64,000 bases of DNA from Escherichia phage NHEP1. Position numbers and translations under genes: made by a program. The stretch lies in the sequence record PQ511146.1; one strand, 5' to 3'. The notes beneath the pieces were generated by a model. The model was not told where the DNA came from and ran no database searches. It saw only the letters and a program-made list of their open reading frames with translations. Positions 36,339-48,350 of this stretch are shown piece after piece. Numbering within the stretch: position 1 is the stretch's first letter; every line of letters starts with the position of its first letter.

Positions 36339-36878
36339 TCAACACTCTTTGTACTCCACCACGATAATATCTATATCAAAAGTGGCAAGGTTAATAATGT
36401 CCTCTACATGTTCCCACTTCAAACCGCCTATGCCGCACCCGATCTTAGGGATGTAGAATGGTAAAATCGACCCCTCAAATACTTCATTGACTCGCTCAAA
36501 TCCTTTCAGTATTGAGAAATATTCAGCATTAGGCCCTGGGTAGAACTGAGTATACAGATTTATTCCGTAGACAATACCTCTCGGAGATAAGTGCTCCCAG
36601 CGGGAGAACGCGCCCAGTTTACTTAGGCAACCGTGCATAGTCATTTTATCAGCTTCCAATGCTTGAGGGAACTCACGGGCAATCTGTTTTGCTACACCCT
36701 TACCCATTGTGTGGAAGCAGTTACAACCGTGGATCAGGTGACCATCACCGCTCTTAAAAAGGGAGATTAAATCTCCCTCTACAGTATCAATAATCACGAT
36801 ATTCCAGCTCCTCTTCCACAATTTCAAAAAACTCAGTCCAGCACTGTGGCATATTGGAGTTACCGAAGTGGCTTTCAT
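36339..36878 (-). CDS. Macro-domain-like protein (putative ADP-ribose binding/processing)
   Basis: GDLI...HGCNC...MGKGVAKQI and later GCGIGG glycine-rich motif, in the order expected for macro domains. Confidence 0.5.
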   Translation of the reverse strand: MKATSVTPICHSAGLSFLKLWKRSWNIVIIDTVEGDLISLFKSGDGHLIHGCNCFHTMGKGVAKQIAREFPQALEADKMTMHGCLSKLGAFSRWEHLSPRGIVYGINLYTQFYPGPNAEYFSILKGFERVNEVFEGSILPFYIPKIGCGIGGLKWEHVEDIINLATFDIDIIVVEYKEC

Positions 36879-38007: not shown

Positions 38008-38035
38008 AAAAATGCCCCACCCTTTCGGGCAGGGC
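38008..38035 (-). terminator. Rho-independent terminator (minus strand)
   Basis: Minus strand GCCCTGCCC-GAAA-GGGTGGGGC followed by ATTTTTGT; identical hairpin recurs at 49129-49150. Confidence 0.6.
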
Positions 38036-38050
38036 TATGTTGACTAGATG

Positions 38051-39277
38051 TTAAAAAGGTATGTCATCATCAAAGGCGTACTGTGCCGGATTCTGATCCA
38101 TCGGGTCGTCTTCCGCATCATCTACAGGAGGAGCGTCTACAGTGTTTTGCTGTGGGGCGGCTTCCTGTTTGGCAGCTTGAGGCTCTTGATGGTCAGTGAC
38201 TCCAGCACCGTTCTTGATCCAATCATACAACGGTTCAGCAAGATTAGTCAAGACATCTTTTGCCTCTGCAGTAATTGCTACTGCAAAATCATCAACTTTC
38301 GTTTTCTTGTCAATACGGCGACAAGCGTTCAATACCGCATTACCAACACTGGCACCTACTTCATCTTCAGTTCGGTTAGTGGCTTGAGCGTACTCTTTCT
38401 TAAGCTCGATGGTGACCACGTGCAGTGTTTTAGCCACATCTAAAGGACTGTCAATCTTAAACCCGCGATCCAGGATGATCTGCAATGCATTGATACTGTG
38501 CCCTGTCTCTACACCGATGGGGTCGTAAGAGGATTTACGCTTACCACCAGAACCTTGTGTACCGTTCTCTGCTTTAGGCGGGTAGGCCTTGAAGCCGCTG
38601 ATAATATTCCCGGTGTCTTTGTCAACAATAGCTGCAACACGACCACCTACCACCAGGTCTTTAAGCTGCTCATCAGAGACAACCATAGCACCTTCACCAA
38701 TCTTGTGATCATTGACAGTAACCACGTTGCCAACAATCTGAGTCACATCGCCATAGATGCGTAAAACGTCCTGATTGGCATTCTGCTGAGGTTTCTGCTT
38801 CTGGCCTTGTGATTGTGCACCTTGTTGCTGTTTTTGCTGCTGAGTCGCTGCTGGAGCCTCTCCTGCACCCAGCTTGACCATCTTAGCCAGGGAGCCTTTG
38901 TAATAGATCTTACCGTTATGCTCGTTTGCCTTCAAAGGGATATTTACGATCCATCCTGGCGTTACAGTTTCCCACTTGTCATCAATTTTAACAGAGACAG
39001 AGTCTTGATGACCCGGTTTAAGCAGCTTATCACCCATACTGATCCAAACTTCTTCACCACCTTGAAGCAGGTTATCAGAGGAATCCAGTTCAGAAATCAG
39101 TAAAGAGATGGTGTGGCTGGATTCAATTTTCTTACCTTGCCACACAGTGGTTTTAATACCTGTTGTAGGATCAGCACCTTTGATAGGCTTGATGCTGACA
39201 CGTTTAATCATGCCGTGAGCCAGTAAAACAGTTTCACGCGGATTCATCGGGTTAGCGAATTGTTGAATAACGCTCAT
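38051..39277 (-). CDS. Hypothetical protein with Gln-rich linkers and bacterial SSB-type C-terminal tail (DDDIPF)
   Basis: 408 aa; C-terminus ...AQYAFDDDIPF; N-terminal region unlike a canonical SSB OB fold by eye. Confidence 0.6.
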   Translation of the reverse strand: MSVIQQFANPMNPRETVLLAHGMIKRVSIKPIKGADPTTGIKTTVWQGKKIESSHTISLLISELDSSDNLLQGGEEVWISMGDKLLKPGHQDSVSVKIDDKWETVTPGWIVNIPLKANEHNGKIYYKGSLAKMVKLGAGEAPAATQQQKQQQGAQSQGQKQKPQQNANQDVLRIYGDVTQIVGNVVTVNDHKIGEGAMVVSDEQLKDLVVGGRVAAIVDKDTGNIISGFKAYPPKAENGTQGSGGKRKSSYDPIGVETGHSINALQIILDRGFKIDSPLDVAKTLHVVTIELKKEYAQATNRTEDEVGASVGNAVLNACRRIDKKTKVDDFAVAITAEAKDVLTNLAEPLYDWIKNGAGVTDHQEPQAAKQEAAPQQNTVDAPPVDDAEDDPMDQNPAQYAFDDDIPF

Positions 39278-39753
39278 TATTTATCTCCTTGTTCTTCGTT
39301 AGTGTTTGCCGTGTGTGCAAACCCTGCTTGAATTAATTTGTCCTGAACTTGAGCCAACAGGCCCATTGCAAAACTTGTGGTCCCAGAGAGGGCCATCAGC
39401 ATATCTCGTTGTTGAGCTACCCAACCTAAGGCATAGTCCAAACGACGATATTTTTCTTCTTCACGCAGAGCCTGGAATAATTGTTCAGCCTCTGGCTGTT
39501 GTGTAAGCTCCTGAAGTCTTCCCATGAAAGAAGAAAGCACTAGCAGAAGAGACACTTGATCTTTACTTAACCCTAAGAAAAATTCTTGAGGTTGTTCTTG
39601 CTCGTTCATCGCAACCGACGCTTGATCGTTCATTTGTTCCATTATGGAATCTCCGATTTTATTTGAACAACATAGAAGGAGACACCATTTTAGCATCTCC
39701 TTCTGCAAATTACAACAGGTATTTGTTAGCCAATTACTTCGAAAGTACCCCAA
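39277..39753 (-). CDS. Hypothetical protein
   Basis: Track ORF 158 aa. Confidence 0.5.
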   Translation of the reverse strand: MGYFRSNWLTNTCCNLQKEMLKWCLLLCCSNKIGDSIMEQMNDQASVAMNEQEQPQEFFLGLSKDQVSLLLVLSSFMGRLQELTQQPEAEQLFQALREEEKYRRLDYALGWVAQQRDMLMALSGTTSFAMGLLAQVQDKLIQAGFAHTANTNEEQGDK

Positions 39754-40685: not shown

Positions 40686-41002
40686 GCTTCCTCGTCATCT
40701 AATGGGTTGAAGATTTCACCGAAGTATTCTAAGACTTCCAGCTCACGGGTGGTGCAGAAAACACAGTCCCCGTTGTCATCTTCGATAACGGCCTCTTTAC
40801 CAAGAACATCAACTTCAAATTCGTCGTTTAACAGAACGGAACCTGTGTAAACTTTATCTGCCGTGCAGTCCCGAAAAGCAGAGTCCTTCTCCAAGTAGTC
40901 TGGCTTAACCTTGGCTTTAATTCGTTGATATTGTTTGGTCATTGCTGTGGTCCCCTTTCGTTTTGATAGGGCCATTATATTAGGCCCTATCGCTATTGTC
41001 AA
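40682..41002 (-). CDS. Hypothetical protein (paralog of 41006..41260)
   Basis: Shared AF(R/K)DCT and DD(N/E)GD.V(F/W)CT motifs. Confidence 0.5.
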   Translation of the reverse strand: MTIAIGPNIMALSKRKGTTAMTKQYQRIKAKVKPDYLEKDSAFRDCTADKVYTGSVLLNDEFEVDVLGKEAVIEDDNGDCVFCTTRELEVLEYFGEIFNPLDDEEA

Positions 41003-42136: not shown

Positions 42137-42507
42137 TGATCTGCCTCCTTCTTGTTGAGCCGGAACACTGCAATAATAGCATTTCCAAGATGCAGTGTCA
42201 AATCATTTCCCAGATACCATAACATTCCACGGTCATCTTTAATGAAAGGGTAACAATCCGGTGCCTTCCAGACATTATACACTTTGCCGACCTGAAAGAA
42301 ATCAGGCCCTGTTGGAATTTTAGTACCGGGCCATACTTGGGACACCTGAACGCATTCTACCTGCATAATGACAGGGATAGTCATGGAGGTAAATGTTTTT
42401 GTTGGTTCTACTACCATAAAAGTCTCCTCTCTGTCTAACAACACTTCCGTGTGTTGATAGTTTACATTAGTGACAATCACCCCAGTTACGACCGCACAAG
42501 TATTCAC
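42133..42507 (-). CDS. Small protein, DDxGxxW(F/Y)L paralog family
   Basis: KDDRGMLWYLGNDLTLHLG. Confidence 0.5.
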   Translation of the reverse strand: MNTCAVVTGVIVTNVNYQHTEVLLDREETFMVVEPTKTFTSMTIPVIMQVECVQVSQVWPGTKIPTGPDFFQVGKVYNVWKAPDCYPFIKDDRGMLWYLGNDLTLHLGNAIIAVFRLNKKEADQ

Positions 42508-45500
42508 CTGTGATCTGGAACGGAACGCCCATCATTTTAGAAGCCTGCCAGAAGCAATGCACCACCATTTCGCCCACAGGGCTCCAGATAAGCTCAAGCT
42601 TTCCGTCATCATTCAAGATAGGATCGTATACCGTATTTCCATCCTTGTCAACCACTTCGTTTCCGTCCTCATCTTTGCGTGCCTTTTTGTACTTATGACC
42701 GTCGAACACATGAAGTTTAGCCTCTTGTTGGGCTTTAAATGTTTCCAGCTCTTCAATTGTGTCGAAGGTGTATACGGTTTTATACTTAGGTGTGTCAGGC
42801 ACTTGAAGCTGATATTCGTCATGGTAATAGATAATACGACGAACACCCTCATCATACCATCCACGCTTCACCATCTGGTGGTGCATGAGGATTCCGACCA
42901 AGTCGCACAACGATGCACCGCCATTTTGCTGATATGCATTAAGCAAAGAGTGTTTAGAGCGGGTCCAAATGGCATGCCCGTCAAAAGAGTAGATAAATTT
43001 CTTACCTGTTGCTTCCCAGAATTTCTCCAGATCCTCTTTACGCCCCTTAAGGCCCGGGTTGGCATCCCAGAGAGCATCAATTACTCTCTGTCCAAGTTCT
43101 GGAGAGATATCTAGCATATCTGCAACTTTATCTTTTTGTGCCCCGTACATAACCCCATATGTGACAGGCTTACCATCGTTACGGGAAATCTCCTTGCCTG
43201 CTACAGAAGAGTAAGCTTTGGCGTTATTACAGTTACCGCACACTGCCACTTTACCATTCCTTCTCACAATGATTGCTCCAGAAGGGACGGTAACGCAATA
43301 AACCAAAGAACCGCTCACCTCGACAGACTCTTTAGATAGTGTCAGCAACCCTGCTCTCTGTTTGCTACCAATCGTGATTCTGTGCTGTACGGAACGACCT
43401 TTTTTGTGAATCGCCACCGTATTATTCCGTAAACCACACTGAGTAGCCAGCGCAGACACAACCTCTACAGATTTCTTCCTGCACCCGGCCTGAGAGTAGT
43501 AGGCAACTTTTCCACCTTCGGAAGATACCCACCCGTCCCAGTTAGATAAAGAAGCTATAAACAGGTTTTTAGATTCTTTATCAAGGTCCATCAGGTTGTA
43601 GGTGAAATCCTTATTGCTGTCCAAAAACTCAAATACCCAGGACGGAACGTGGAATTGGAACCTTCTCGCCAGTAAGCCCCCTTTTGTGGTTTTCCCGCTC
43701 TGCTCTACATAACTAAGGCTTAGAGCAGAAAAAGTATCTAAAAGCGTTGCAACTTTTCTGCCCTTCCCGACCTGAATCCTGCACACGATGCTGCCGTCCT
43801 TATTTGTATGCAAGTGCCCATCATCGTGAATAGCAATAAGCAAATTAACCTGGGCAGGAGATAAGGTTGTATTCCCATAAAACTCTGCCGCATGGATAAA
43901 CCTTCTTCCTGAATTAGACCCTTTACCTGCTTTCAGGTCTTTTGCCAAATCTTCAAACAATTTATTGCTTCTGTGATCCACGGTCAGCATCCTGTGTTGA
44001 TCTGTAACCATAAAATCCACACTGCTGTTGTGGAAATGATACATATCCCCACAATAACTACGCTTAACGTAATTTAATGGAGTAACAAGGTTCATCGACG
44101 AGGTGTTGTGATCGTACTGGAACACCTGTGTTCCCGGATCAAGATCTTCAAACCTCACCCACCCTTTCTCCGTGAGAATTTGTGTATCTCCTGAATAACA
44201 GTGTGCATCGCCGTTACTTACAACATCATAATACAGACCGTTGTCAAACTCAAAGGCACCCCAGGCCCCGATGAGCTGCTCTAAGTTGGACCCGTCAATA
44301 CCGATCTCAAAGTATCCTGGAGGAACACCCCACAGACTACGCATCTCTTTACCCATAACCACTTTAGGAGATGGTTTAGGCATGTTTGCACAAATACTAT
44401 GTTTCTGTCTGGAAGTGTTTGTTAATCCAGAACTTTTAGCAGGAAGCTTGTGGTCAATCTTCAAACGTGGATGATTAAGAAGACCAGTATCAACCTTATC
44501 TTCCTTGATTGGATCAAGGACCGATCTGCGGTTTCGCAATGATAACCACAAAACGATATCTTTAGCCATCTCTCCGTTCAATTTTTCAAGATTCGGGCAC
44601 AGGTGTCCAAACGTATCTTTCAGTTGCGGAGAAGTAATAAGCGCTCTGGCTTTTCTACGTATCTTCCCAAACACTTCCTTTTTAATCCTTTCTGAGTTAG
44701 GGAAGCTTCGGAACTTATGCACAGTTGTCTGGAACTTGGCATCAGTTTTGTTCCAGAAGTTGATAATTAGATCACAATACTCTGACTCCAAAAGCTCGTC
44801 CATATATGCATATACTCGTGCATCAACATCTGCATCAGGTAAAGCTTTCTTCTTGCTGTCTTTAGTTACATCTTTAGTTCTCCACATTGTTGGGAGCCAA
44901 CCAGCACTGATCAGGTATCGCTTGATGTCGTCCTGATTGCTGATTTTCATAGGTATCTTGCAGTCAGGCATTCGCTTCTGCTGTAGGTCACTTATCGCCT
45001 GATCCATCAGCTCTTTAGGTAAAGGGTGTGGTGTAGAAGTTCCTTTGATATACCCCCTCAAGAAATCAGCCATCTTATCGGGGTCTTTACAGCCCATCTC
45101 TTCACACCATTTTATCCCCATCTTACTTACATCCCCTGTGGAGGTAAATGCTCGCTTAGGAGGAGCTTTGAACTCTAAAGCACTCATGTCCACAGGGTAG
45201 CCAAGCTTGTCTTTTAACCATTTCCAACCATTATTGGAGATTGTCCCATCTTGGTTAAACGGCTTTTCAGGGAACTTAGGCCGCTGAGACATTGATAACT
45301 CTTTTAAAGGAAGTTGTGGTTCAACACGATCAGCGATCTCTTTCATCCACGCATCGCAACGGTCACGTAAAGCAATAGCCCCATCTATGTCGAAATACAC
45401 CCCCTGTCGAGCCTGCAGCTCCATCAGGAAGTGCTGTAACATGCCTCGGCGTAATGCGTTCTTCCAGGTGATCTTCTTGAAGCCTTTCGGCTTCTCTTTG

Positions 45501-46213
45501 GCAGGATCGTACATAAAGTTCTGCATGTCAGATTTGCCGTAGAATACACCTTTTGATTCCGCTACCAACTCCTTCCAGAGCAACTCCTGGATGATAACGT
45601 CCTCGAACACACGATCCACATACTTCCACAGTGGAAGCTCACGCCAGTCATCGATTTGAACTTTCTGGTTACCAAGGGCATAGCCCCATGCCATAAGGCC
45701 ATGAGGCCCAACAGGCTGCATTTTCTTGGTAACTGGATTGAATACTGCGTCCGGACAACCTTTTGGCAAAGGGCGGTCAGGCCACAAGATTCGGCTCATC
45801 GCTAACGTATCAAACAGATTAACCGGGTGGTCGTTGATAGTCCCCATGCATTTAGGATCACGGAACATATCAAAATGAATACCGGATAATCTTTCCATCA
45901 GCATAAAGTCGTAACTGTAGCAGTTATGACAGTTCAAAGCCGTAGGTGACCAGTCTGAATTGCCTGTAAGCCAACCTTCCAACTCTGAAAAATCTGCTAT
46001 GCGAGCCTCAAAATCTGTATAAAGGGTCTTCTTTGCCAGAATGAAGTTCTTAGCTTTCTCCACATCCTCTTCAGAGTAGTGTGTGCGGTCATTTAGAGGA
46101 AGGAACAGCATAAAACGGTTCTTATTCAGCTCTTTAAACAAACCGCAGTGATAATAAAGATCTGGGTCTTCCAGCAGGCCAGAGGCCTCAAAATCGAACG
46201 ACCACATGCTCAT
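42467..46213 (-). CDS. DNA polymerase, family A (T7 gp5-like), intein-containing
   Basis: N-terminal exonuclease motif FDFEASGL and YHCG; motif A-like GIDGSNLEQ...FDNG; motif B-like NAK...YGVMYGA; motif C-like YYHDEYQ; AAGGAG RBS. Confidence 0.85.
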   Translation of the reverse strand: MSMWSFDFEASGLLEDPDLYYHCGLFKELNKNRFMLFLPLNDRTHYSEEDVEKAKNFILAKKTLYTDFEARIADFSELEGWLTGNSDWSPTALNCHNCYSYDFMLMERLSGIHFDMFRDPKCMGTINDHPVNLFDTLAMSRILWPDRPLPKGCPDAVFNPVTKKMQPVGPHGLMAWGYALGNQKVQIDDWRELPLWKYVDRVFEDVIIQELLWKELVAESKGVFYGKSDMQNFMYDPAKEKPKGFKKITWKNALRRGMLQHFLMELQARQGVYFDIDGAIALRDRCDAWMKEIADRVEPQLPLKELSMSQRPKFPEKPFNQDGTISNNGWKWLKDKLGYPVDMSALEFKAPPKRAFTSTGDVSKMGIKWCEEMGCKDPDKMADFLRGYIKGTSTPHPLPKELMDQAISDLQQKRMPDCKIPMKISNQDDIKRYLISAGWLPTMWRTKDVTKDSKKKALPDADVDARVYAYMDELLESEYCDLIINFWNKTDAKFQTTVHKFRSFPNSERIKKEVFGKIRRKARALITSPQLKDTFGHLCPNLEKLNGEMAKDIVLWLSLRNRRSVLDPIKEDKVDTGLLNHPRLKIDHKLPAKSSGLTNTSRQKHSICANMPKPSPKVVMGKEMRSLWGVPPGYFEIGIDGSNLEQLIGAWGAFEFDNGLYYDVVSNGDAHCYSGDTQILTEKGWVRFEDLDPGTQVFQYDHNTSSMNLVTPLNYVKRSYCGDMYHFHNSSVDFMVTDQHRMLTVDHRSNKLFEDLAKDLKAGKGSNSGRRFIHAAEFYGNTTLSPAQVNLLIAIHDDGHLHTNKDGSIVCRIQVGKGRKVATLLDTFSALSLSYVEQSGKTTKGGLLARRFQFHVPSWVFEFLDSNKDFTYNLMDLDKESKNLFIASLSNWDGWVSSEGGKVAYYSQAGCRKKSVEVVSALATQCGLRNNTVAIHKKGRSVQHRITIGSKQRAGLLTLSKESVEVSGSLVYCVTVPSGAIIVRRNGKVAVCGNCNNAKAYSSVAGKEISRNDGKPVTYGVMYGAQKDKVADMLDISPELGQRVIDALWDANPGLKGRKEDLEKFWEATGKKFIYSFDGHAIWTRSKHSLLNAYQQNGGASLCDLVGILMHHQMVKRGWYDEGVRRIIYYHDEYQLQVPDTPKYKTVYTFDTIEELETFKAQQEAKLHVFDGHKYKKARKDEDGNEVVDKDGNTVYDPILNDDGKLELIWSPVGEMVVHCFWQASKMMGVPFQITGEYLCGRNWGDCH
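43232..44200 (-). mobile_element. Intein (about 323 aa) with LAGLIDADG-like endonuclease motifs inside the polymerase gene
   Basis: Begins CYSGDTQIL right after GDAH; T..H block; LIAIHDDGHL and FIASLSNWDGW motifs; ends ...VAVCGN before +1 Cys; extein boundaries by alignment-by-eye. Confidence 0.75.
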
Positions 46214-46271: not shown

Positions 46272-48350
46272 TTAAAAAGGTGTTTCGTCGTCTTCAAAAC
46301 CAGGAACGTGGTTAGAGGACGGATCATCATACTGAAGGTCTTCCTGTGTGTCAACAGGGTTAACAGCAGGGGTTATAACCTTATCAGCCACAACCTTGCC
46401 CACAGGTGTTTCTACAACTGCATGCTCCTGATCCTCAAACATAGCCTGAGGTCTCCAAACAACCTCCCCACCTTCCCCGTCTGTAAACATCTGCATTTCT
46501 TTGTCCCAGTACCAGTTGCTGGCATCATAGAACTTGCCTGTGTGGGGATCCATAACTAGAGTGTCCGCAATACCTAAGGTTTTTGCTGGGCGGTTTTTAA
46601 GACCTACCAGTCGGACACGTCCACGGGAACGATCCACCATCTCCTCTGCCTCTACCCCGACAACCACCCAGCTAAGTTGCTCCAATCCGGCACTACCGCG
46701 AAGGTTCTCTTTTCGTACAGGGTACCAGAAAGGTAACGGATTTCCATCCTTATCCTTCGGAGGTACAATCTCTGTGCGCTTCAGGTGAGCAATCACCAAG
46801 ATAAACACATTAAACTGCTTACAGAACGCGGCTAGTTGAGTCATAGCCATGTCAAGCTCTTTACGCTCATCCTTAACATTAAGCCCTGAAATCACCATAG
46901 ACAGGTGATCCAGCACAATGTAACGGCAGTGATACAGGCACACCATTTGTTTAAGCTTAGTGATCAGCTCATCTACAGGGATGGAGCCGAAATGCTTGAA
47001 CACTTTGATTTTTCCGGCCTTGGCCCAAGATTGATGAATCTCAGCGTGCTCCTGATCGGTCAGGAACTGACTGGGGTCTTCAACAAACTCTTTAACATCA
47101 AACCCCAGCTGGTTAGCGTACAGAGAGTTGATTGCTTCCTCAGGATCCTCTTCAAGGTGAATCAGGCACAGGCGATCATCCTCTTCATAATCATCAGCTT
47201 TAGGGCATGTTGGATCCATCAAGTATCTTGCAATGCAATGTTCCAGCTTCTTGGCTACAGTTGTTTTACCACCGCCAGACGGGCCTGTCAGCATCATCAA
47301 GGTGCCTTTGTGGAGTCCTTTCAGCATCTTCTGCAGTTTAGGGAACTCTGCACTGATATCTACGCCATTGGAAGTCTTCTTACGAAGAGATTCAATGGAG
47401 AAGTCTTCTAAATCAGATACAGCATCAGGCACATATTTGACTGGGTGACGGAACATGTTGACAATATCTTCCAGCTTTTTAGCCTTCAGCATGTCACGAA
47501 TATCTTTTACACCATCAGGGTCGTTTACCTCACCCGGGTATTCCACGTGGTAAACGTTATCAGCCATCAAAAATGCTGCGATATTATGTGTGGCTTCAAC
47601 ACCTTTAATAACGTGTTTTTGCTTCTCTACCTCGTTAGCTGCATCGTTGTCCATTGCAAGGACCACTGTTCCGTAGCTACGGATAAATTTCTCATTGTTC
47701 GCAAAAGTGTCTACGGCGTTTGCACACCCACAGTTAATTCCAACAAAAGGCAGGCATGGTTTTCCTGCCAGATCCCCGCCGTTGATAACTGCATCAATCC
47801 CATCCTGGACTTCTTTAGCCCACTGCTTCACCTTCGCTGGGGCTTTAGCATTGGTGAGAATTCCTTTTACTTGTATCTGATATGCAGCCTGCCACGCTGC
47901 AATAACATCTCCTTCTCCCTCACAAACGTTAATCTGCTTACGGTTGTTGGAGGATGCACACAGCTTTTGACCAAACATCTGGGAGTTGGCCTTTACTATG
48001 CCAACAACCGAGAAATGGCCCCTTTGCTCTTTAGGGATTGTCCAGTCACGCTTTTTAAAGCCAGATAGATTACCGTAGCGGTCATAATACGGAAAGTAGG
48101 TGGCAGTAACAGTTACACCATCCTCTTGGGATAGCGATGATCGTACACCAAAATATTGTGCAGCCATCAGTCCAATATTTTGTTGTGGAACAGGGACAAT
48201 TTTAGTGTTTTCTAAAACAGTCTCCACAGTTTCAACTTCTTTTTCATCACGATAGTCTCGTTTCACACTCCCCCCACTTTTATACTTAGTTGCTTTCGGG
48301 TTTGGCTCACCGAAACGGTTGTATGCAGATGCCATGAATTTACTGCCCAT
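46272..48350 (-). CDS. DNA primase-helicase (TOPRIM plus DnaB-family helicase, T7 gp4-like)
   Basis: TOPRIM-like VCEGEGD and LAMDNDAAN; Walker A GPSGGGKT; Walker B-like FILVIAHL; AAGGAG RBS. Confidence 0.8.
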   Translation of the reverse strand: MGSKFMASAYNRFGEPNPKATKYKSGGSVKRDYRDEKEVETVETVLENTKIVPVPQQNIGLMAAQYFGVRSSLSQEDGVTVTATYFPYYDRYGNLSGFKKRDWTIPKEQRGHFSVVGIVKANSQMFGQKLCASSNNRKQINVCEGEGDVIAAWQAAYQIQVKGILTNAKAPAKVKQWAKEVQDGIDAVINGGDLAGKPCLPFVGINCGCANAVDTFANNEKFIRSYGTVVLAMDNDAANEVEKQKHVIKGVEATHNIAAFLMADNVYHVEYPGEVNDPDGVKDIRDMLKAKKLEDIVNMFRHPVKYVPDAVSDLEDFSIESLRKKTSNGVDISAEFPKLQKMLKGLHKGTLMMLTGPSGGGKTTVAKKLEHCIARYLMDPTCPKADDYEEDDRLCLIHLEEDPEEAINSLYANQLGFDVKEFVEDPSQFLTDQEHAEIHQSWAKAGKIKVFKHFGSIPVDELITKLKQMVCLYHCRYIVLDHLSMVISGLNVKDERKELDMAMTQLAAFCKQFNVFILVIAHLKRTEIVPPKDKDGNPLPFWYPVRKENLRGSAGLEQLSWVVVGVEAEEMVDRSRGRVRLVGLKNRPAKTLGIADTLVMDPHTGKFYDASNWYWDKEMQMFTDGEGGEVVWRPQAMFEDQEHAVVETPVGKVVADKVITPAVNPVDTQEDLQYDDPSSNHVPGFEDDETPF

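Follow-up and report, generated by a model that had tools for sequence, protein, structure and literature searches.

The DNA analyzed, hereafter the window, is a 64,000 nucleotide stretch of Escherichia phage NHEP1 (PQ511146.1), a Vequintavirus (rV5-like myovirus). Its segment 38051–39277 encodes, on the minus strand, a protein of 408 amino acids that begins with ATG and ends ...NPAQYAFDDDIPF* at the stop codon (Table 1). An earlier note on this DNA had placed a 408-aa ORF at these coordinates, which proved correct with the strand being minus; the plus-strand reading was discarded as it contains no ORF and its translation is full of stops. The ATG of this SSB-like gene shares bases with the stop codon of the preceding ORF (TAATG), which suggests translational coupling. 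No family match was obtained for the upstream ORF in Pfam or NCBIfam, and its product may be a translationally coupled partner of the SSB-like gene. On the 3' side the operon is closed by a strong intrinsic terminator. A perfect sigma-70 promoter (TTGACA, 17 nt, TATAAT; 12/12) was observed at 40974–41002 on the minus strand. It is located 5' of the block of small ORFs that is closed by the SSB-like gene and the terminator, and the full consensus match is consistent with transcription of this block by host RNA polymerase. At the DNA level the SSB-like gene shares 99.8% identity with ECP32DNA_00187, a 'hypothetical protein' gene of phage vB_EcoM-ECP32. Counterparts that are 94–98% identical were found in more than 100 E. 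coli phages, carrying the same label in all matches listed.

Table 1. Features of the SSB-like gene, its product and its surroundings, in window coordinates unless another record is named.
Feature	Position	Strand	Basis or remark
Complete CDS, SSB-like protein, phrog_4477 member	38051..39277	minus	Translation; PHROGs E = 3e-171, full length
Predicted N-terminal OB-fold domain, residues 1-138, basic (pI 9.1)	38864..39277	minus	Predicted structure; conserved positions
Gln/Lys-rich disordered linker GEAPAATQQQKQQQGAQSQGQKQKPQQNANQD, residues 139-170	38768..38863	minus	pLDDT <50 at 140-169; sequence
Predicted small five-stranded beta-barrel, residues 171-233, short helix between strands 3 and 4	38579..38767	minus	Predicted secondary structure
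Short basic linker PKAENGTQGSGGKRKSSY, residues 234-251, net charge +3	38525..38578	minus	pLDDT <50 at 237-250; charge
Predicted four-helix bundle, residues 252-356	38210..38524	minus	AlphaFold2 model; most widely conserved part of the family
Acidic intrinsically disordered tail, residues 357-408, net charge -12	38054..38209	minus	pLDDT <50 at 359-408; charge
Tip FDDDIPF, residues 402-408	38054..38074	minus	Equals the last 7 residues of E. coli SSB (SSB-Ct)
RBS AGGAG, 7 nt 5' of the ATG	39285..39289	minus	Sequence
Upstream ORF of phrog_7310 (function unknown), ~121 aa in the ECP32 annotation	39277-39645	minus	Stop overlaps start of the SSB-like gene
Strong intrinsic terminator, hairpin GCCCTGCCC-GAAA-GGGTGGGGC then T-run ATTTTTGTAT	38014..38035	minus	Sequence; 3' of the stop codon
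T7 gp4-like DNA primase/helicase, 692 aa	46272..48350	minus	DnaB_C; phrog_239
Family A DNA polymerase, very probably interrupted by an intein	42467..46213	minus	Pfam and PHROGs; comparison with ECP32
Endonuclease VII cassette in relatives	SYGMH1 L006:2724-3400; also L007		Absent from the window, where the site would be 38053/38054 (minus strand)

The SSB-like gene is the last of a minus-strand block headed by a RecD-like helicase, the primase/helicase and the family A polymerase, and is separated from the polymerase by roughly ten small ORFs of unknown function. The gp4-like primase/helicase and the polymerase are both candidate replisome partners of the SSB-like protein. The gene order in phAPEC8 was found to be alike (primase/helicase, methyltransferase, Pol I, small ORFs, family gene, terminator). 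A metagenomic short form of the family was located 3' of a DnaB-type primase-helicase and a 554-aa protein, and in another relative a family A polymerase was found about 10 kb upstream of the gene. No second SSB was retrieved by phmmer from the six-frame ORFs with the three queries used, E. coli SSB, B. subtilis SsbA and T7 gp2.5. Nor is an SSB annotated in the complete related genome of Bas48.

The polymerase is 1248 aa in the window as compared to 925 aa in ECP32 and Bas48. It carries a 323-aa insertion at 43232–44200 on the minus strand, starting ...GDAH/CYSGDTQIL, ending ...VCGN/C and matching a Hint domain weakly, while the flanking extein sequence is 97–99% identical to ECP32. On sequence grounds this insertion is very probably an intein. 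The C-terminus of the primase/helicase (46275–46301, minus strand) is acidic and ends ...VPGFEDDETPF. This end resembles the tip of the SSB-like protein as well as the tails of T7 gp4 and gp2.5, both of which are acidic and end in Phe. The helicase tail is of the acidic-PF kind in both the window and Bas48 and of the acidic-F kind in a distant relative (L009; ...DQEFEEF), and the phAPEC8 helicase has no acidic Phe-ended tail. A T7-like rule in which SSB and helicase both carry such tails was for this reason kept as a parallel only.

The protein matches the PHROGs family phrog_4477, of unknown function, over its full length (residues 1–408 against profile positions 1–393 of 393, E = 3.3e-171). 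Pfam returned nothing and NCBIfam no SSB match, and both phmmer and profile searches of the PDB were uninformative. None of 46 diverse members of the family matched the Pfam SSB profile (PF00436), even with E values as high as 1 allowed, and with the NCBIfam SSB model PRK09010 the phAPEC8 member was matched through its tail alone, at E = 5e-5 and far below the cutoff. Alignment of the N-terminal domain to canonical SSB by hhalign gave a probability of 0.1, a weak negative since the SSB alignment was thin, consisting of 2 sequences. Relatives were numerous: a word-indexed search yielded 49 homologues, an exhaustive profile search 173 clusters at 50% identity and tblastn hits in 358 phage records. 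The latter spanned Vequintavirinae, Phapecoctavirus and Justusliebigvirus/phi92 as well as myoviruses of Klebsiella, Cronobacter, Erwinia, Pectobacterium, Serratia and Proteus. Alignment of the 46 diverse members defined the family core as the N-terminal domain, the helical domain and the acidic tail. Many members are short forms of about 260–300 aa with neither a Gln-rich linker nor a middle beta domain. One of these, phAPEC8 gp085 (295 aa, ending ...EEPPMDFDDDIPF), holds the full 9-residue E. coli SSB-Ct. In a few records, namely ESCO5, vB_EcoM_REC, NINP13076 and Salmonella phage 40, the homologue is called 'single-stranded DNA-binding protein', a name that was borne by 2 of 60 records in a spread sample. 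A literature search found no publication on the phrog_4477 gene family.

Structure was modeled with AlphaFold2 on the family alignment. The N-terminal OB fold was confident in the prediction, and structure comparison returned SSBs, PriB and RPA as its nearest solved structures, a likeness at the level of the fold only, with Z below 8 and some non-DNA OB folds scoring similarly. The OB surface is basic with conserved aromatic and basic positions, those kept across the family being H55, W78, W102 and Y126 together with K25, K42, K49, K97 and K123. As modeled, residues 1–138 are likely to constitute a ssDNA-binding module. The N-terminal ~300 residues had been described in the earlier note as not resembling an OB fold. 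This held at the sequence level, where Pfam, NCBIfam, PDB and hhalign were silent, but structure prediction of the region, the check proposed at the time, returned an OB fold and the impression of none was wrong structurally.

In the model the small middle barrel spans residues 171–232 and the four-helix bundle residues 253–355. The middle barrel may be either OB-like or SH3-like, and marginal SH3-like Pfam matches to it were seen in 4 of 46 family members. It is missing from the short family forms, and comparison of the N-terminal and middle domains by hhalign gave no signal of internal duplication. For the four-helix bundle neither a specific structural relative nor a sequence relative in the PDB was found. 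Family-wide conservation in this domain is confined to Gly and other small residues, which suggests a role in helix packing and not in catalysis. The bundle may be an oligomerization or scaffold domain. In three homologues (P0040, P0041 and P0042) the OB domain was strongly divergent while the linker and middle domain were near-identical to those of other lineages, a domain-wise mosaicism that points to recombination at the disordered linkers.

The E. coli SSB-Ct has the sequence MDFDDDIPF according to the published literature. The claim that the protein ends in the host SSB tip DDDIPF was borne out and can be extended, as the identity reaches 7 residues (FDDDIPF) and the tip is conserved across the family. 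By our own arithmetic, using typical residue frequencies, DDDIPF is expected by chance at a given C-terminus with a probability of about 2e-8, or less than 1e-5 when all of the window's few hundred ORFs are counted. In an alignment of 23 homologues P407 and F408 were invariant down to 36% identity, and an acidic run followed by IPF, LPF or VPF terminated 139 of the 198 family sequences retrieved. This family-wide conservation settles that the tip is real and not due to chance. In the window protein the Phe of the acidic ...DDDIPF stands at the free C-terminus, and a disordered linker precedes the tip. The segment directly before the tip (residues 357–401) is rich in Pro, Gln, Ala, Asp and Glu and predicted to be disordered, with a net charge of -12 when the tip is included. 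The Gln-rich flexible segments that the earlier note described before the tail were found in part: Gln is among the enriched residues of this disordered segment, but the strongly Gln-rich stretch (146–169) sits between the first two domains. When tips were compared to those of host SSBs with regard to IPF and LPF, all isolated phages with family members were found to infect gamma-proteobacteria, the SSB of which generally ends in IPF. LPF-tipped members were seen only in metagenomes without host labels.

In its general layout, in which a predicted OB fold leads into a disordered linker and then an acidic tip, the protein follows the logic of bacterial SSB of the E. coli type (PF00436). It differs from the latter in that its OB domain has no detectable sequence or profile similarity and is about 50 residues larger, and in being 2.3 times longer, with a beta-barrel and a four-helix bundle added between OB and tail. 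Bacterial SSB self-associates through the OB domain itself. In the phage protein oligomerization probably does not take place via the OB domain, the separate helical bundle of the model suggesting another mode. Thermus/Deinococcus SSB has two OB folds per chain, whereas the second barrel of the phage protein, which may be OB-like or SH3-like, shows no sequence relation to the first and is dispensable in the family.

Among phage proteins, T7 gp2.5 is likewise an OB-fold SSB with an acidic, Phe-ended tail, and its working partners are a primase-helicase of the gp4 type and a family A polymerase. Replication proteins are contacted through the gp2.5 tail, which is also a competitor of ssDNA at the OB surface (PMC10359462 and references therein). 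The window protein resembles the gp2.5 type in having an acidic tail with a terminal aromatic residue beside a gp4-type primase-helicase and a family A polymerase, but neither sequence similarity nor close structural similarity to the gp2.5/DUF2815 lineage was found. By sequence it appears to lie outside both the SSB and the gp2.5 families, and its modeled architecture differs from theirs in that a helical domain stands apart from the OB fold and a second barrel is present in some members. The SSB of phage HK620, a Sak4 partner, needs its last six residues NDYPPF to recruit that partner to SSB-coated ssDNA (PMC5928155). This ending resembles DDDIPF and provides a precedent for phage SSB tails as recruitment handles, although the HK620 protein is a remote homologue of canonical SSB, 21 kDa in size, whose particles are as large as a tetramer. 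Its partner is a phage recombinase, and no description of a helical domain exists for it. A further comparison is to the short forms of the same family, phAPEC8 gp085, phi92 gp156 and ESCO5_00088, the last labelled 'single-stranded DNA-binding protein', in which the OB, helical and tail parts are homologous, the tip reads DFDDDIPF and the gene occupies the same place after primase-helicase and polymerase. They differ in their length of ~295 aa, in lacking the Gln-rich linker and middle barrel, and in a longer identity to the E. coli SSB tail (EPPMDFDDDIPF).

A number of homologues run about 15 residues beyond the terminal PF, as in ...DDIPF-APVGLQYGKSRIHAL. In SYGMH1 and VB-EcoM-WM this extension was traced to a cassette of ~640 bp, annotated 'endonuclease VII', which is inserted precisely behind the last Phe codon. 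The free-standing endonuclease VII cassette was found in 52 related phage records, rV5 among them, in which it adds the same 15 residues and the remainder of the SSB-like protein is intact. Similar extensions with the conserved pattern A-P-x-G-L-Q-Y-...-I-Y-x-L were present in very distant family members, and at a further locus (L008) an HNH gene is located immediately 3' of the family gene. The position of the cassette exactly at the tip codons, the distant extensions and this HNH gene together suggest that mobile endonucleases home to the tip-coding sequence. Canonical SSB-Ct pockets bury the side chain of the terminal Phe and anchor its alpha-carboxylate, and deletion of the Phe abolishes binding (PMC10164576). 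As the pockets need a terminal Phe, the 15-residue extension should disable canonical docking. The extension-bearing phages still grow, and a free tip would thus be dispensable under laboratory conditions. Natural capping of the tip in 52 sequenced relatives amounts to a ready-made experiment on the importance of a free SSB-Ct.

Taken together, we consider it likely that the SSB-like gene encodes the phage's own ssDNA-binding protein, equipped with a host SSB docking tail through which host and/or phage partners would be recruited. From what was computed, namely the ORF, fold, disorder, tip, conservation, synteny and the search that returned no other SSB, we infer ssDNA binding, oligomerization and all partners along the following lines. 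The basic OB fold would bind ssDNA bared at the phage replication fork, and the four-helix bundle would most likely provide self-association, making up the conserved family core together with the OB domain and the tail. On phage ssDNA the tail could then recruit host SSB partners (exonuclease I, RecQ, PriA, the chi subunit and RecO), and/or the phage's T7-type polymerase and primase-helicase in the manner of the gp2.5 tail in T7. In addition, the tail is likely to fold back against the OB surface and to adjust DNA binding, as do those of E. coli SSB and gp2.5. The earlier note had left a choice between a divergent SSB serving a T7-type replisome and a tail mimic. The predicted OB fold with its basic and aromatic surface, the conserved placement near genes for a DnaB-type primase-helicase and a family A polymerase, and the absence of another SSB from a complete related genome, as judged by annotation and phmmer, favor the former.

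A mimic would act as a decoy. Present at high copy, the tip would titrate exonuclease I, RecQ, RecJ, PriA, UDG and chi without ssDNA binding being needed, with the outcome that host replication or repair is shut down or that phage DNA ends are protected. The identity of the tip to host SSB-Ct, extending to all 9 residues in some relatives, speaks for such a role, and any protein with this tip must compete somewhat with host SSB given that SSB-Ct is the docking site shared by its partners (PMC10164576). For a decoy, however, neither an OB fold whose surface keeps basic and aromatic residues nor a conserved helical domain would be required, and these domains were kept over the very large distances represented by the 173 clusters. 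The gene furthermore sits in the replication module and not among early host-takeover genes. In the 52 phages with a capped tip the folded domains are intact, which weakens a pure decoy and places the main job in those domains and not in the free tip. We regard a decoy as quite improbable.

Alternatively, host SSB could coat the ssDNA while the phage protein acts as a specialized ssDNA factor, such as a recombination mediator, an annealing protein, a PriB-like primosome or restart adaptor or a replisome organizer, with the tip plugging it into the host SSB network. Searches of Pfam, PDB and NCBIfam linked the protein by sequence to neither RecO nor PriB. Most RecO proteins have a Cys4 zinc finger, and RecO binds the SSB-Ct rather than carrying it, as is also true of PriA. 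The phage protein has a single Cys, leaving no room for a RecO-type zinc finger, and carries the SSB-Ct itself. A RecO-like reading was rejected on these grounds and on the absence of a Pfam or NCBIfam match. Moreover, an OB fold leading into a disordered linker and an acidic tip is what typifies SSBs, and a 135-kb phage that has its own polymerase, primase-helicase and ligase yet no SSB would, to our knowledge, be unusual among large lytic phages. A specialized factor is consequently thought to be unlikely. A further reading is a protein with an OB domain that binds protein or ligand and an IPF tail used for phage-internal contacts only, its likeness to the host being convergent. Identity over the full 9-residue SSB-Ct in relatives is hard to reach by convergence on a phage-internal partner, and the basic OB surface and replication-module synteny also stand against such a protein, which we hold to be very improbable.

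A bolder extension of the phage SSB reading, put forward tentatively and with considerable doubt, is that a widespread and essentially unrecognized phage SSB lineage captured the host SSB-Ct, possibly by recombination with ssb, and redirects the host SSB interactome to phage ssDNA, with endonuclease insertion acting as a natural on/off polymorphism. Capture by ssb recombination is suggested by members in which the identity runs through all 9 residues of the SSB-Ct and beyond. If true, the conserved 15-residue extension would be a functional alternative C-terminus as opposed to read-through junk.

Myoviruses of the rV5-like, phi92-like and phAPEC8-like types are common phages of E. coli, Salmonella and Klebsiella and are represented in therapy cocktails and in the BASEL collection. 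An SSB is listed in almost none of their genomes, and the present assignment would fill this gap in the replication module while defining a new SSB architecture that combines an OB fold with a helical domain set apart from it and a tip of the host type. Such a protein is expected to join the host SSB hub or compete for it, which bears on host takeover and on defenses that sense phage SSBs. A host-like tail on a phage SSB is by itself unsurprising; what is noteworthy is that widely used model phages carry an SSB family that has gone almost entirely without annotation.

Two further observations were made. A macro-domain protein (PF01661, E = 2e-7; phrog_335) is encoded at 36339–36878 on the minus strand, some 1.2 kb to the 3' side of the SSB-like gene. 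ADP-ribose is a possible substrate, and the protein may serve to counteract host defenses. Some 20 records named 'Campylobacter phage', with C. jejuni as host, contain the SSB-like gene at 94–98% identity to E. coli rV5-like or phi92-like phages. These host labels are probably wrong, or the records derive from contaminating coliphages.
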